From Nitrosopumilus sp. (GTDB lineage Archaea > Thermoproteota > Nitrososphaeria > Nitrososphaerales > Nitrosopumilaceae): a DNA stretch of 64,000 nt. The position numbers and the translations under genes were made by a program. The stretch covers positions 1,207,849 to 1,271,848 of the forward strand of contig CBDBLX010000002.1 in assembly GCA_965207445.1 (NCBI GenBank), read 5' to 3'. Under the pieces are notes generated by a model that saw nothing but the letters and a program-made list of their open reading frames with translations, did not search any database and was not told where the DNA came from. Positions 14,413 through 29,730 of the stretch are shown here, in pieces (position 1 is the first letter of the stretch; the number at the start of each line of letters is the position of its first letter).

Positions 14413-14462
14413 CAAAAATCTAATAGCTATGTGTCATTTGAGTTTACAAGAGAACTGGTGAC

Positions 14463-14543
14463 GTAACCGTTCAACCCCCATATCTGCACCAGATATTAGG
14501 CGGCGAATATGTGCCTAAATTTGGGAAGAGGTTGAACGGTTAC
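14463..14543 (-). mobile_element. MITE-A copy (81 bp)
   Basis: Perfect TIR gtaaccgttcaacc / ggttgaacggttac. Confidence 0.88.
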
Positions 14544-14590
14544 GAATAGTACATCTATAGATTTTTATAGTATGTTGGAGTCGCAGTTGT

Positions 14591-16556
14591 ATGAATATTT
14601 CATTAACTAGACATCTACGCGTCAAGCAGATCTCTGATCCCTCTCAATCTCCAATCCCCCCCCCCCCCCCATCATTCTAACGCGCAACACCGCCTTTTTA
14701 CAATAATAACCCCTCTTTTACTTGCCGGAATTATAATCACAATAGTTGCAGCCGTTCCGGCGGCTGACTGGGCCAGCGCCGGCCACGGTTATGCAGTCCC
14801 ACCAATCCCCGACGACCTGAACAGGGCGTCCGTCACGTTCACCTCGCCCTCGGGCGGCGATCCTATCAGGGGGACCATAACACTCGAGCGCAATGCCGCC
14901 AAGCAGATGAAGTTCGCGGCCGAAATACGCGAGTGTATAGTGGACCTGGGCAACGTCGGCAATATCCCTCTCCGGTCGGCTAACATGTGCGGCAACGACG
15001 CGCACGCCAGCCTGGACCCCAACGACGCGGGGCGCGACTTTTCGCGCAACGTAATCTGGACGGACTCCAACAAGAACACCGTAGCATACTACTATATCCC
15101 GACGTACAAGACGATAACCATAGAGAAGGGCGAACAGCAAGCTCACGTCACGTGGCAGACGCACAACGACGGCACGTCGAACGTGCAGTCGTTCACGGTG
15201 GCGGTCACGCCCCTCTACGAGGGCCCCGTGTACGGACACCACTGGGTGGATCCGGACAGGCCGCCGGCCGGGACGTTCATGTCCCAGCACCACTGGAAGG
15301 CGCAGATAAACGCCCAGCCGGAGCTGATAATGGTGGCAGACAGCCCCACCGACGTCACGGAGGGCGGTGAACTGCGCGTAGTGGTGCGCGCCACCCCGAC
15401 GGCGGACCCGGAGATTACGTTCAACTACCGCGTCACCGAACACAACAGCAACATTGTCCACAACAACAATGAGGGCGACAAGAGCGACCAACAAGTCGGC
15501 GGCGAACGAGGCGTACGCATCCTGACCCAAAACGACAACCAGGATGAGATCGACGGCACCGTCACGATAACGCTGCTCCCCGGCACCGGCTACACCGTGG
15601 GCACGCCTAATACAGTCACATTCACGGTGCGGGACAACGACCCAGGCCCATTGGGTAGTGGTGGCAACAGCCCTCCGACCCCGACTACAGTCTCAATTGG
15701 GCTGGCAGGCGGCAGCTCGGAGGGCGACCCCGTCTCATTTAGCATCGGCGCTTCCCCCCCGCCCCTGTTGCCTTTGCCAGTCAACGTCACCCTTTCGGGC
15801 GCCGGGAACGTGCTCAACGCATCTGATGTGGGCTGGCGCATCGTGGAGATCCCGCCGATCGGCTCGTATACATTGGAGGTTCCGACCATAAACGACGGCG
15901 TCATAGACGCCAACAATGTTACGCTCACGATAAACCCAGGCGCCGGCTACACGCTGGGACAATTTGCAAGCTGGACTGTGGACGTCCAGGACGCCGGGAC
16001 GACGTCAAGCCTGATGCAGCCGCCCGTGTACGACAAGCTCACCCAGGCGCAGAATCTGACGACAGTCGCCATAGACCCAGCGCTGGTCGCCAACGTGACC
16101 GCGATGGCGTCCCAGGTGCAGCACGGCGCAGACCATGTGGACAGGTGGAACCGCGTTCTAGCTGCCTTTGGCGAGATTGACCACTCAAACCCGATGACCG
16201 CAGCAGAGGCACAAACCAATGCAGAAAAGTACAGCAGCCCACTATGGCCGCAGATTGTCGACGTGTTGACATTGCTAGAGGCGGCGGCAGTAGTAGAACA
16301 GGACGATCCGCAGACGCCGCCTGACACGCCGCCTGCCATAGACCCTGCTCTGATCAACAGCGTCAGGGAGCTGGCGGCACAGACGCAGCACGGCGACGCG
16401 CACGTGGACAGGTGGAACCGCGTTCTAGCTGCCTTTGGTGAGATTGACCACTCAAACCCGATGACCGCAGCAGAGGCACAAACCAATGCAGAAAAGTACA
16501 GCAGCCCGCTGTGGCCGCAGATTGCAAAAGTACTAACGCAGCTTGAGTCAAGGTAA
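14591..16556 (+). CDS. Secreted Calx-beta/Ig-like protein with tandem C-terminal repeats; start out of frame at the C15 tract (candidate phase-variable)
   Basis: Main ORF 14907-16556 extends upstream without an ATG through the signal peptide RLFTIITPLLLAGIIITIVAAV to the poly-C tract; ATG 14591 is in frame with C14 or C17; GC-rich. Confidence 0.75.
14656..14670 (+). repeat. Poly-C tract (15 C)
   Basis: Read directly from the sequence. Confidence 0.95.
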
Positions 16557-21427: not shown

Positions 21428-21508
21428 GCAACCGTTCAACCCTCATACCTGCATCAGAAATTAGACGGTGAATCTGTGCCTAAATTTGAGGAGGGGTTGA
21501 ACGGTTAC
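21428..21508 (-). mobile_element. MITE-A copy (81 bp) truncating the protease gene
   Basis: gcaaccgttcaacc...ggttgaacggttac. Confidence 0.88.
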
Positions 21509-22110
21509 CAGAGCAGGGCCGTATTGGCTCAGGATCGGCATCCACGCCTCTAATTTCTTTGGATCTTGGGATTCCCTTTTGGCAAGGTCAAACTGGTCAA
21601 TGATGGACTGCGCGGGAACCATCTGCCTGCCCAGCTGGGTCTGGAGGACAAACTGTGGATCGATCGGCCCTATCGACGAATGCTTCCCCATCACTATCGT
21701 GTTTGCAGAGCATGCGATCATGGTCGCAGCAGACATTGCAGCCTGGGGAATAATTACGCGTATATCGTTGAATTTGGTCCGCATGTATGTAACTAACGCC
21801 TCTGCGGCCTCGATGGAGCCACCACCCCCCCCCCCCCCCCGGACTGTGAAGGATCAGGTCCAGACTCTCGCCTTTTAGCCCGTGAATCACTTCCATCAAC
21901 CCCTGTATGTCCTCGTCTGTTATGGAAAGGACCTCCGGAGTGCCGATCGGTTTCCCAGTCTGGGTCCAAGCTGTGGCGTAAAGAATTGTGTTTCTACTTG
22001 TCAGCGAAAACAGCTGGGCTAGGTATTGTCTTCTGACCTCATCAAATGGAACTGGATTAGCCTTGGACTTTGTCTGCAGTTCGGATAAGATTTTCCCCCC
22101 AAGTCGGCAT
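21509..22110 (-). pseudogene. SDH-family ClpP-fold serine protease, frameshifted and truncated
   Basis: MPTWGE...LDLILHSPGG...EAAEALVTYMRTKF...PQAAMSAATMIACSANTIVMGKHSSIGPIDPQ; frameshifts near codon 6 and at the G16 tract; cut by MITE-A. Confidence 0.88.
21825..21840 (-). repeat. Poly-G tract (16) in the HSPGG motif
   Basis: 16 C on the + strand. Confidence 0.95.
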
Positions 22111-22346: not shown

Positions 22347-22429
22347 GTAACCGTTCAACTCCTTCCAAAATTTAGGCACAAATTCACCGCCTAACGTCTG
22401 GCGCAGGTAACCGGGGGTTGAACGGTTAC
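22347..22429 (+). mobile_element. MITE-A copy (83 bp)
   Basis: gtaaccgttcaac / gttgaacggttac. Confidence 0.88.
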
Positions 22430-26104: not shown

Positions 26105-26890
26105 ACACAAAAAAAGGAGAACCATATATGGAATCTACTTGCAGAAAAAACCAAAGTTCAAAAAACACAATGACACATATCCCAAAGAACAAAATATCAA
26201 CAACTAACCTAAACACATACAGTATATACAAAGACTAAGAAATTAATCTAAAACCATGTTTATGGTAATTGAAGATCCATGAGGCTACAGTCGCATATGC
26301 CAACTCTAAACATGACTCCATGTTTGTTGTTGTGCATAGAGTACTCGTACGATAAAAATCTAGATGCTGCGATATTGATACTCAAATAATAATTAATGTA
26401 ATTTCTTAGAGCAAATAAATCTCATCACTAGAATTGTTCATAATGAATGAATTTGTTGGAGATACAGATAAACAACTAGCACAAGTATTGCTACACAGAT
26501 GATAGACACTCTATGATAAATTCGAGGCCACAACACAAAAAAATGATATCATAATATGTAATTTAATAACAAGACAAATATATCAAATAATACATGGAAA
26601 ACTACATCTGATCGGTAGCAAATTTAAAGGCAAAAATATAATGGCAAATATAAAACGTATAGTATTATATGTATTAGTAAATCTATATTAATTTAAATGA
26701 AAATATGAAAATTCTACTAGTCAACACAACTCAAAAATGTACATGACGTAATTTATCCAATTTAGGGTTTTTTATATAATCAATTATATTTTGGCAAAAT
26801 TTGTAGGTTTGAATACTTGATTAACTGAATTACACAACACGTTAATATATTCGATACTTTTAATAATATGTACTTTGTAACTATGTCATA

Positions 26891-29730
26891 ATGATTATTA
26901 CGCGCCACCCACTCAACTGTATACACTCACTCGGGGGGGGGGGGGGGGGGGCAGGCAGGCAGGCAGTAATAGATCACGCACCAAACGTCGCGTTTTATTA
27001 CCTATCATACTAGCCATACTAACAGTAACAGCAATCTCACTTTTACCATCTGATCAGCAAGCCTACGCCCAGACAATAGTTGCAGTGCCTGCTGACTGGG
27101 ATTATACACCCAATGGCCTGGCAGCCGGGGACACGTTCAGACTACTGTTCTCACCATCCGAGGGCCATTCATTTACGGATACAAAGATACAGGACCTGAT
27201 TGAATCATCCAACATCTTTACGTACGGCAAGTCGACGTACTATCGTATAACCGATGATCCTACTGTTGAGTGTTATGGCTATTATGGCCAGATGGTCGGC
27301 TCAGATGTCTATTGGGATATTGTTAAAAGGAACAATAACGGTGAGGGAACTGACATAAATCGAAACGGCGTGGATTATTGTTATCATATGTATAAACGGA
27401 CGGTAAACGTTGCAAACTCAGAGCCCTCTGCGATGCGCGAGTTCTCAGAGTATTTTCGTGTACTGCATTTCGGTCACTCTGATCGCGACAGCGTCAGGAG
27501 TAACACTTACACTCAAGAAGGAGTAGACGTACCGATATACTGGCTTGGTAGCAATAGCAAGATAGCTGACAACTATAATGACTTTTACGCAGGAGACACA
27601 CCTGGCGAGTCAAGTGAAAGCCGCAACGAGCACGGCAAGTATACGCAGGCCGTTAGATACTCTTATGGCATATCTCCAATATTCAGAGTCACCGCGGAGG
27701 ATGTGCCTGCTTATGTCATACCGACTGTTACACTATCTCCATCCCGGGCTCTGGAGCAGATTGAGGGTGGACAGACTAGAACTTACATACATCTATCTAA
27801 TCCCTCACCCGTTGATATAACGGTTAGAGCTTTTGCTGTTGACTCTGGTGACTTTGTAATGTCAGTGTTTAGGCCTCATCTAAGCCCTGCTGTTTTCGAG
27901 AATTCACTTAATGCCGGTGATGTGCGAGGTAATAGAATGCAACTTATCACAGATGATGACAATGTCCATGAACCAGACGGCACTATAACGTACACTCTAC
28001 TTCCCGGGGATGGTTACATCGTAGGTGAGCCGTCGACTGTCACATTTACCATTCGAGACAACGACCCGGACCCCAACCCACCTCCACCTCCACCACCACC
28101 TCCTCCCTGCACCACAGACAAACCATGCGTCACACTGGACACATCTGGCTCTTATTTTGAGGGCCGCAAGGTGTCGATACCCATACACGTGGACCCACCG
28201 CACATCTCAGGTACTGCGCTGCAAGTAATGTTCGAGACTAGAGACAGTGGCCATATACTTGAAGCATCCGACAATACGATGCACATATTCGGTGTGCACG
28301 GCAGAGTCGACTACTTTCAGTCTGAGACGGTAAGGGATTGCAACCCCTCTGGTCAGAATTGGATAGAGTTTAGACTAAAACCCAGTAAAGACTACCAGAT
28401 ACGAGACGGCGATGAAAACTGGCAGAGGATGACACTGATTGAACACAAACCGCACCCTGACGGCCCCGTCTTGTGGCTTGACAAGAGCGTCATTGATAGC
28501 CAACTACCAGTGACAGAGGGCGACACAGTCGACCTTACTGGACTGATCAAATCAGAGTACTTGGCTTGTTCTGACATCCGTCCCGTATTACACCTGTCCG
28601 TCAATGGAGGCGTTTCGACTGATACTTCATTTACTGTTGCCCATAGCAGTGAAGCACTGATTGCACAGGGCAAAAATCAGAATCCCAGCGCCGACATCGT
28701 CACAAAGAGCAACAGCAACGACGACAACCCTGCTGGCTCCATCACAATTACACTGCAATCGGGCACCGGCTACCAGGTCGGCTCTGCAAACACCGTGACG
28801 ATCTCAGTGGCAGACAGCCCCCATGTCAATAACTCCCCGCCACCACCACCCGAGGTATCAATTGGTATATCAGGCGGTGGTTCAGAGGGTGACCACGTCT
28901 CCTTTGGCATCAACGCGTCCCCCGCACCCCAGTCTCCTTTGCCAGTCAACGTCACCCTTTCGGGCGCCGGCGGGATTCTGAACGCCTCTGATGTGGGCTG
29001 GCGCATCGTGGAGATTCCACCGATCGGCTCGTATACGCTGGAGGTCCCGACCATAGATGACGGCGTCAAAGACGTCAACAATGTTACACTCACGATAAAC
29101 CCCGGCGCCGGCTACACGCTGGGACAATTTACAAGCTGGACTGTGGACGTCCAGGACGCCGGGACGACGTCAAGTCTGATGCAGCCGCCGCCCGTGTACA
29201 ACAAACTCACACAGGCGCAGAATCTGACGGTAGTCGCCATAGACCCAGCGCTGGTCGCCAACGTGACTGCGATGGCCAACCAGACGCAGCACGGCGACGC
29301 GCATGTGGAGAGGTGGAACCGTGTACTGGCCGCGTTTGGGTACACCACGCACGACAACCCGACGACTGCAGCAGAGGCCCGCGACAACGCCGAGAAATAC
29401 AGTAGTCCGCTGTGGCCCCTGATTGCCGACGTGCTGACATTACTAGAGGCAGCAGCAGAACAAGACGGGCCGCAGACGCCACCGGACGTACCGACTGAGC
29501 CAGACGTGCCGCCTGCCATAGACCCTGCGCTGATCAACAGCGTCAGGGAGCTGGCGGCCCAGACACAGCACGGCGATGCGCACGTGGACAGATGGAACCG
29601 CGTCCTAGCTGCCTTTGGTGAGATTACCCATGACAACCCGATGACCGCAGCAGAGGCCCGCACCAACGCCGAGAAATACAGTAGCCCACTATGGCCGCAG
29701 ATTGCAGACGCGCTAGCGGCGCGCGAATAG
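26891..29730 (+). CDS. Secreted Calx-beta/Ig-like protein, paralog of 14591-16556; start out of frame at the G19 tract (candidate phase-variable)
   Basis: ORF 27085-29730 extends upstream without an ATG through the signal peptide RTKRRVLLPIILAILTVTAISLLPSDQQAYA to the poly-G tract; ATG 26891 is in frame with G17 or G20. Confidence 0.78.
26933..26951 (+). repeat. Poly-G tract (19 G) followed by (gcag)x4
   Basis: Read directly from the sequence. Confidence 0.95.

Follow-up and report, generated by a model that had tools for sequence, protein, structure and literature searches.

The window analysed here, a stretch of 64,000 nucleotides from Nitrosopumilus sp. (assembly GCA_965207445.1, contig CBDBLX010000002.1, positions 1,207,849 to 1,271,848), contains on its forward strand a gene (26891..29730) whose reading frame depends on the length of a G tract near its 5′ end. 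The tract (26933..26951) is 19 nt long in the assembly consensus, which leaves the gene out of frame; at 20 it would encode a protein of 946 residues, and the body of the gene is intact. A TATA-like box (TTTTAATA, 26858..26865) lies 25 nt before ATG 26891, which opens a 14-codon leader (MIITRHPLNCIHSL, 26891..26932) that is read in frame in paralogs and in proteins from other assemblies. The G19 run begins 42 nt past this ATG and shares its final G with a (GCAG)4 repeat (26951..26966), probably a second slip site. It is followed by a signal-peptide-like segment (26953..27069), recognized by eye from a basic n-region, a hydrophobic core VLLPIILAILTVTAISLL (mean hydropathy of 3.05 across 12 residues) and a cleavage-like AYA. 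Read from the ATG as assembled, translation gives MIITRHPLNCIHSLGGGGGG and 20 further residues before a TAG (27011..27013), an off-state peptide of 40 residues in total. When tract lengths of 12–24 were modelled, 14, 17, 20 and 23 gave products of 944–947 residues and the remaining nine gave 23–41 residues. The long frame is bounded by a stop at 26878, and its earliest usable starts are a GTG at 27085 and then an ATG at 27292, both 3′ of the hydrophobic segment, so that either would lose the signal peptide. The first-pass annotation of this DNA had described the same arrangement (a TATA-like box just before the ATG, G19 between it and a signal peptide, restoration of a frame of about 946 residues by G17 or G20, and no ATG in the main frame from the stop at 26878 to 27085), and each of these points is borne out.

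ATG 26891 is very likely the true start, because two paralogs with a near-identical promoter and leader are in frame from the equivalent ATG, one with G14 (970 residues) and one with G11 (941 residues). Three proteins from other assemblies (P0069, P0071 and P0072) are likewise in frame from it. Across the genome, TATA-like motifs peak 28–31 nt before predicted ATGs (136 of 1270 genes, with a maximum of 57 at 29 nt), a spacing that would be the pattern of leaderless mRNAs. The box at this locus starts 33 nt before the ATG, against that peak of 28–31, and we infer that the transcript starts at or close to ATG 26891.

The source genome (G000) comprises 2.6 Mb in two contigs (C1 and C2) and is 96% complete. 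It carries archaeal amoA (PF12942, E of 1e-116), its homologs bear the labels Thaumarchaeota or Nitrosopumilaceae, and the organism is an ammonia-oxidising archaeon of the Nitrosopumilaceae. The gene in question is one of a family marked by a C-terminal repeat, for which 27 matches in 15 frames resolve into 12 full-length genes and three short remnants. One-by-one inspection of all 39 long tracts in the genome places a 5′ G/C tract of 9–19 nt in 11 of the 12 full-length genes; ten of these tracts (six G, four C) lie between the ATG and the signal peptide, and the eleventh lies 37 nt before the ATG of a member of 3733 residues. In the member with no tract, a spacer of non-repetitive sequence takes the place of the C10-bearing spacer found in its counterpart in a related genome (G097), and the two are equally long. 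Among the ten genes with a coding tract, four are in frame and six are out, which fits a one-in-three phase (p = 0.74). All six off genes have intact bodies (654–952 residues); three need +1 and three need −1 or +2, a C9 gene being among the six, with no preferred offset.

Such 5′ tracts are rare outside the family. G or C runs of 12 or longer number 32 in G000, where base composition predicts 0.015 and extrapolation from the decay of short runs 0.009, so that long G/C runs are not due to chance. With a threshold of at least 9 in the 5′ zone, a tract was found in one of 289 other signal-peptide-like genes and eight of 1749 remaining genes. These counts come from a home-made caller (2050 genes) that on its own scored only nine of the 12 family members, having placed two starts 236–252 nt downstream, and non-family cases could hide likewise. 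Collapsing the family to seven distinct 5′ modules leaves six with a tract, the paralogs still not being independent. The internal proline runs provide a direct test of whether the peptide or the slippage is retained, as they have mixed codons: the Pro10 linker of the window gene (28078..28107) contains no C run longer than 3, homopolymers do not exceed 6 in any of the 14 internal runs of 4–10 Pro in family genes, and the same holds for 62 of 64 Gly or Pro runs in other genes. At the 5′ end, it is probably the homopolymer that is retained, and not the peptide.

A second family member in the window, on the forward strand at 14591..16556, carries a C15 tract (14656..14670) that also leaves it out of frame (in frame at 14 and 17). 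Its leader and N-terminal domain differ from those of the G19 gene, and the C-terminal half is common to both. The first-pass annotation took the two genes to share a start of the form M..TRH and argued from a C tract in one and a G tract in the other, at the same position, that selection acts on slippage. The shared start is not conserved: the C15 paralog reads MNISLTRH and the G19 gene MIITRH, and the other three of the four C-tract paralogs read M(N/T/V)ISLIRQ. The G and C leaders could not be aligned beyond the TATA region, and homology between them was rejected. The argument from different bases is weak: the leaders are unrelated, and the use of C in one gene and G in the other cannot by itself show selection in a lineage that also has long tracts at transposon ends, in a pseudogene and between genes. 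Its conclusion is supported on other grounds, namely the tracts of the family, their variation in length and their rarity elsewhere; the conditions under which it would have failed (family members without tracts, an invariant length, tracts equally common in other genes) are not what is observed.

The encoded protein is likely to be exported and adhesin-like. The model was built from 17 sequences (mean predicted local distance difference test score, pLDDT, of 64.6; predicted template-modelling score, pTM, of 0.28). Behind the signal-peptide-like segment, an N-terminal domain (27070..27681, mature residues 1–204) is modelled with low confidence (pLDDT of 26–57), and pieces of it are common to bacterial proteins found by BLAST (P0059, P0065 and P0053). 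Four all-β domains resembling immunoglobulin-like or Calx-β-like folds follow (27721..29157, model segments 218–330, 351–460, 465–582 and 594–696; pLDDT of about 65–85), with polyproline linkers between them. The chain ends in two copies of a four-helix repeat of about 70 residues (29236..29727, pLDDT of about 80–90) with the motif HV[DE]RWNRVLAAFG, which defines the family. A fold search matched β-sandwich arrays, including NCX/CALX CBD12, with E values of about 1e-8 to 1e-9 but TM scores by target of only 0.32–0.35; over the whole chain the TM scores by query were low throughout (0.08–0.13). A Pfam scan of the window protein gave no family above cut-off, PF03160 (Calx-β) included, and PF03160 is present in its homologs. 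A search of a protein atlas with the N-terminal domain or the repeat returned no usable match.

The helical repeat has 463 relatives when clustered at 50% identity, with no Pfam family above cut-off; among the best 150, proteins bearing it reach 5108 residues, and one homolog is labelled Acidimicrobiaceae. The repeat is perhaps an uncatalogued domain serving as a surface anchor exchanged among sponge microbes. The paralogs are mosaic, as seen when 27070–29727 is compared with P0072, P0070, P0002, P0074 and P0069. P0072 is 99–100% identical to the window gene at residues 1–400 and 75% identical at residues 500–600, where it resembles sister genes at 96–97%, and the mosaicism is, on this alignment evidence, domain swapping between paralogous copies.

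The state of these genes differs between assemblies, as read from predicted proteins. P0072, which is in frame, shares 99% identity with the window gene across residues 1–330. Its leader, LGGGGQAGS in place of LG(n)RQAGS, would fit a G12 with one GCAG unit fewer. P0088, 97% identical to the off gene with the C9 tract, is also in frame. Conversely, P0002 (98%) and P0070 (95%), alleles of two paralogs that are on in G000, are called from a GTG behind the signal peptide, as is P0073, the product of the window gene itself. P0006 and the pair P0069/P0071 each differ from their counterparts by one Gly. Among the nine proteins of the subfamily with a readable start, five begin at the ATG and four at the GTG. 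Contig C1 is largely a second-strain copy of C2:1–120 kb (about 98–99% identical over 82 kb aligned), and between these strains the sole shared long tract differs (C20 against C24) while five of five traceable runs of 6–7 are equal in length.

Nine sequencing runs contain the stretch, three of them sponge metagenomes, and a related gene is present in both of the sponge runs that were checked. Contigs of four runs (X1, X5, X6 and X8) were checked across the tract. Those of X5, X6 and X8, from two studies, start inside it with 12–13 G. X1, not an independent sample and possibly the very source of the assembly, matches the window strain exactly in single-copy DNA, yet its contigs end at tracts; the sole spanning contig (X1; G11, in frame) carries changes of the P0069 type and so comes from a related organism. 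The read-level length distribution that the first-pass annotation called for did not emerge from these contigs, which break at or inside the tract. A DNA pattern across the tract had no matches in metagenome contigs, and a protein scan of these contigs found one locus, a distant GC-rich gene with only residues 6–332 in common. Another GC-rich gene, probably from a bacterium, shares the N-terminal domain of the window gene; it is cut off by a contig end within a C14 run (L061:1–14), some 30 codons ahead of its signal-like segment.

The arrangement recurs in other genera. Within the genus, three of 150 further genomes contain the family repeat, and at the family level five of 400 do. In six other genomes from three genera, 27 of the 33 family genes whose 5′ end was examined have a tract of 8–16 (G135, 10/11; G085, 2/2; G097, 2/3, the third gene lying in a garbled G/C-rich gap; G167, 1/1; G180, 7/10, with 15 of 54 candidate matches scored; G246, 5/6). 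The 38 tract flanks from these relatives and G000 form 18 clusters by short BLAST, probably over-split and so representing up to 18 unrelated contexts. Around the G19 tract, the DNA could be matched neither in G085 nor in G135; G097 gave a single short match, in coding sequence. Two layouts were found. In the first, as in the window, the tract is coding and shifts the frame (G085; G180, with one gene on at C11 and one off at C10; G246, where it lies inside the signal peptide and the gene is off). In the second, frequent in the relatives, it lies between the TATA-like box and the start codon (L031 and L033–L041 in G135; L030; L044 and L045 in G097; L068, L070 and L071 in G180; L073 and L074 in G246), as do nine of the 21 tracts of at least 10 in G135. 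The distance from TATA start to start codon is 24–33 nt in the 11 cases scored. A G12 match occurs in 41 of 151 genomes of the genus, with none in most small genomes and dozens in several of 2.0–2.6 Mb; all three other genus genomes with the family repeat are tract-rich.

Taken together, these observations lead us to regard slippage phase variation of the type known from pilC as the probable explanation of the G19 locus. A leaderless mRNA would start at ATG 26891, and replication slippage would add or remove at least one G of the tract. A third of the possible lengths would join the ATG to the signal peptide and yield an exported β-sandwich protein of about 946 residues, and the other lengths would stop translation after 23–41 residues. 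The changes would occur within a population, would be reversible and would benefit the cell: with about ten paralogs switching independently and also swapping domains, a population would display a shifting subset of surface proteins.

Phase variation by frameshift of this kind is described for Neisseria gonorrhoeae pilC1 and pilC2, paralogous adhesin genes with poly-G in the signal-peptide region (available text of PMC13017665). The features of that system are found here: a 5′ coding repeat beyond composition, a tract whose length sets the frame of an intact gene, the absence of any alternative start that restores the full product with its signal peptide, and both states among populations at the protein level (P0072 against the window gene; P0088, P0002 and P0070 for its sisters). 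The class of target also corresponds, as surface proteins, surface-modifying enzymes and restriction–modification genes carry tracts, with about half of the tracts lacking such a target. The differences are that the host is an archaeon, that ten paralogs have coding tracts of either G or C behind a probably leaderless start, that the tract lies ahead of the hydrophobic core, that the protein is unrelated and that switching is here deduced from sequence.

The best-surviving rival, which we consider unlikely, is neutral growth, in which G/C runs past about 7 bases would lengthen, redundant paralogs would tolerate them in dispensable N-terminal leaders and off copies would be becoming pseudogenes. 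Run lengths in G000 are indeed bimodal, with only ten runs in the range 8–11, and many tracts are intergenic. An 83-bp element resembling a miniature inverted-repeat transposable element (MITE), with inverted ends of 15–16 nt, occurs twice in the window (14462–14544 and 22347–22429); of 226 such end motifs genome-wide, four have C runs of 14–24 and none has 7–13, an expansion at MITE or insertion-sequence ends. On the reverse strand at about 21461–22110 lies a broken gene with no Pfam match, which we presume from its LHSPGG motif to be of a peptidase-like family. It has a G16 at 21825–21840, is also broken by an additional G (22091) and is truncated. A relative of about 91% identity, seen in three runs, lacks 16 nt at the G16 and 1 nt at 22091, so that this tract grew from three or fewer G's. 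Protein termini, moreover, tolerate indels better than other regions (PMC3315296, in its available part). Since tracts occur in MITE ends, a pseudogene and intergenic DNA, selection is not needed for long G/C runs to arise, and nothing can be concluded from the mere presence of one. Under neutral growth, however, a coding tract should be purged or decay should follow, yet the bodies of all six off genes are intact and two of these genes have in-frame alleles in other assemblies. Nor would it account for the codons that interrupt homopolymers in all 14 internal Pro runs, for the same position being struck in unrelated flanks, with both bases and in three genera, or for the rarity of tracts among the 289 signal-peptide-like genes outside the family, of which just one has a tract.

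The case for function lies in where the tracts are placed: in the family, a methylase, a restriction–modification enzyme, two glycosyltransferases and a giant FG-GAP gene. The N6_N4 DNA methylase (L052, G000:C2:985039) has a C12 near codon 9 and is in frame, as it would be at 12 and 15 only. A restriction–helicase–methylase (L049, G000:C2:1302281) is split at a G15 into frames of 247 and 1249 residues. Both are candidate phase-variable restriction–modification genes. The glycosyltransferases have a G16 at the 5′ end and an internal G10, and giant FG-GAP proteins have G13–G15 tracts 130 to about 570 nt upstream (L050, L051, L053 and L054). The methylase, restriction–modification and glycosyltransferase classes are among those named for bacterial phasomes in the accessible portions of PMC11868660 and PMC3711429. 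Non-triplet repeats also occur in G000: (TGGC)20, (CAAG)8, (GAGT)12 and (TTTTG)9 at C2:1754544, 1774393, 2045050 and 175912, respectively.

It is quite improbable, in our view, that the tract is an attenuator with leaky expression, RNA polymerase or the ribosome slipping on the G run so that every cell makes some full-length protein irrespective of the DNA tract length. Realignment of the transcript on homopolymers, typically A/T runs, is an established phenomenon (PMC3711429, same portion), the tract lies 42 nt from the start, and the TATA-to-start tracts of relatives may tune rather than switch. However, the DNA tract length itself varies between assemblies and strains, and the ratio of in-frame to out-of-frame genes is about 1:2 with no preferred offset. 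Least probable is a sequencing or assembly artefact, with off states produced by miscalled homopolymers and an actual tract that keeps the frame: the two-contig assembly is probably long-read, homopolymers of 12–20 are hard to call, one base restores the frame and the read check gave no confirmation of length, but miscalling would account for the length 19 at most and not for the tract or its position, the off states need corrections in opposite directions even at a C9, 12–13 G likewise stand at the start of contigs here in three further runs, which come from two studies, and a 70-contig assembly (G085) has 53 tracts of at least 10. That the length of 19 was miscalled in this single allele is a likelier proposition than the whole pattern being artefactual, although we doubt it.

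Several observations weigh against slippage phase variation as the explanation. For about half of the 39 long tracts no role as a switch is apparent: four are at transposon or MITE ends, one is in the broken gene and the rest are mostly intergenic. Paralogs and their kin are not independent, the states in other assemblies are gene-caller output and not DNA, and the contigs of the four runs break at or inside the tract, giving no read-level length distribution for the G19 locus. Other lesions break some family genes elsewhere (L031, L043 and L064). Repair genes, finally, are equally not found in tract-poor relatives. Neither MutS nor MutL, nor NucS above cut-off, was found in the 96%-complete G000; a NucS_C match was rejected as a repair gene, being below cut-off and fused to DUF5655. 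The tract-poor G010 and G012 gave no NucS or MutS and the tract-poor G043 no MutS, and mismatch-repair loss was accordingly rejected as the cause of the tracts: such a loss would leave room for slippage, but the places at which tracts arose are not explained by it. The available text of PMC5290159 leaves the NucS status of this archaeal group unsettled.

The closest parallels at the level of the genome are bacterial, although the details differ. Like G000, in which neither MutS nor MutL was found, the phase-variable pathogen Campylobacter jejuni is not known to have canonical mismatch repair. Its phasome of 29 loci with poly-G or poly-C repeats of 7 or more (PMC4965091, available text) resembles the present case in its dozens of G/C tracts, its low-GC genome and its surface, glycosylation and restriction–modification genes. 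The archaeal tracts are longer (mostly 12–20), about half lie outside genes, one paralog family is dominant and no pathogen is involved. Bacterial promoter-spacer tracts are exemplified by Neisseria porA and opc. The C tract that relatives have in the promoter of the same gene family would similarly change spacing, but a TATA-to-start tract would shift the transcript start relative to the start codon and not the spacing of −35 and −10. The N6_N4 methylase with C12 near codon 9 recalls the phase-variable type III mod genes (PMC3711429 and PMC13076061, as far as their available text goes). It is a separate locus, however, and a candidate only. In the haloarchaeal virus phiCh1, phase variation works by DNA inversion. 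This virus brings adhesion-protein phase variation into the archaeal world (a title cited in PMC8371274), but it is a virus, whereas the candidate here is repeat slippage in a cellular gene. Full-text literature searches, most of them aimed at archaeal or sponge cases and with subscription papers mostly outside them, yielded no description of a cellular archaeon with phase variation by repeat slippage; archaeal genomes are covered in the supplements of PMC3315296 and PMC3711429, which may be relevant to the novelty.

A broader proposal, which we make tentatively and hold to be a serious possibility somewhat short of probable, is that sponge-dwelling ammonia-oxidising archaea of at least three genera possess full multi-locus phasomes, in which mosaic surface proteins each have a slip switch of their own. 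The switches would have been built many times and in two forms, the frameshift of the bacterial type and a TATA-to-start tract special to archaeal leaderless genes, which would move the transcript start so that it falls on the ATG, beyond it or before it. Together with methylase, restriction and glycosyltransferase switches, they would give combinatorial surface variation in a mutualistic archaeon. One practical consequence is that gene callers cut the signal peptide off off-copies (as in P0073), so that exported proteins are mis-annotated. If phase variation is indeed the role of these tracts, then an archaeal sponge associate has a dozen paralogous switches, repeated across genera, and they would point to proteins under fluctuating pressure from the host or from viruses. 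Bet-hedging with surface proteins would then be a trait of host association, and not one of pathogenicity or of bacteria.

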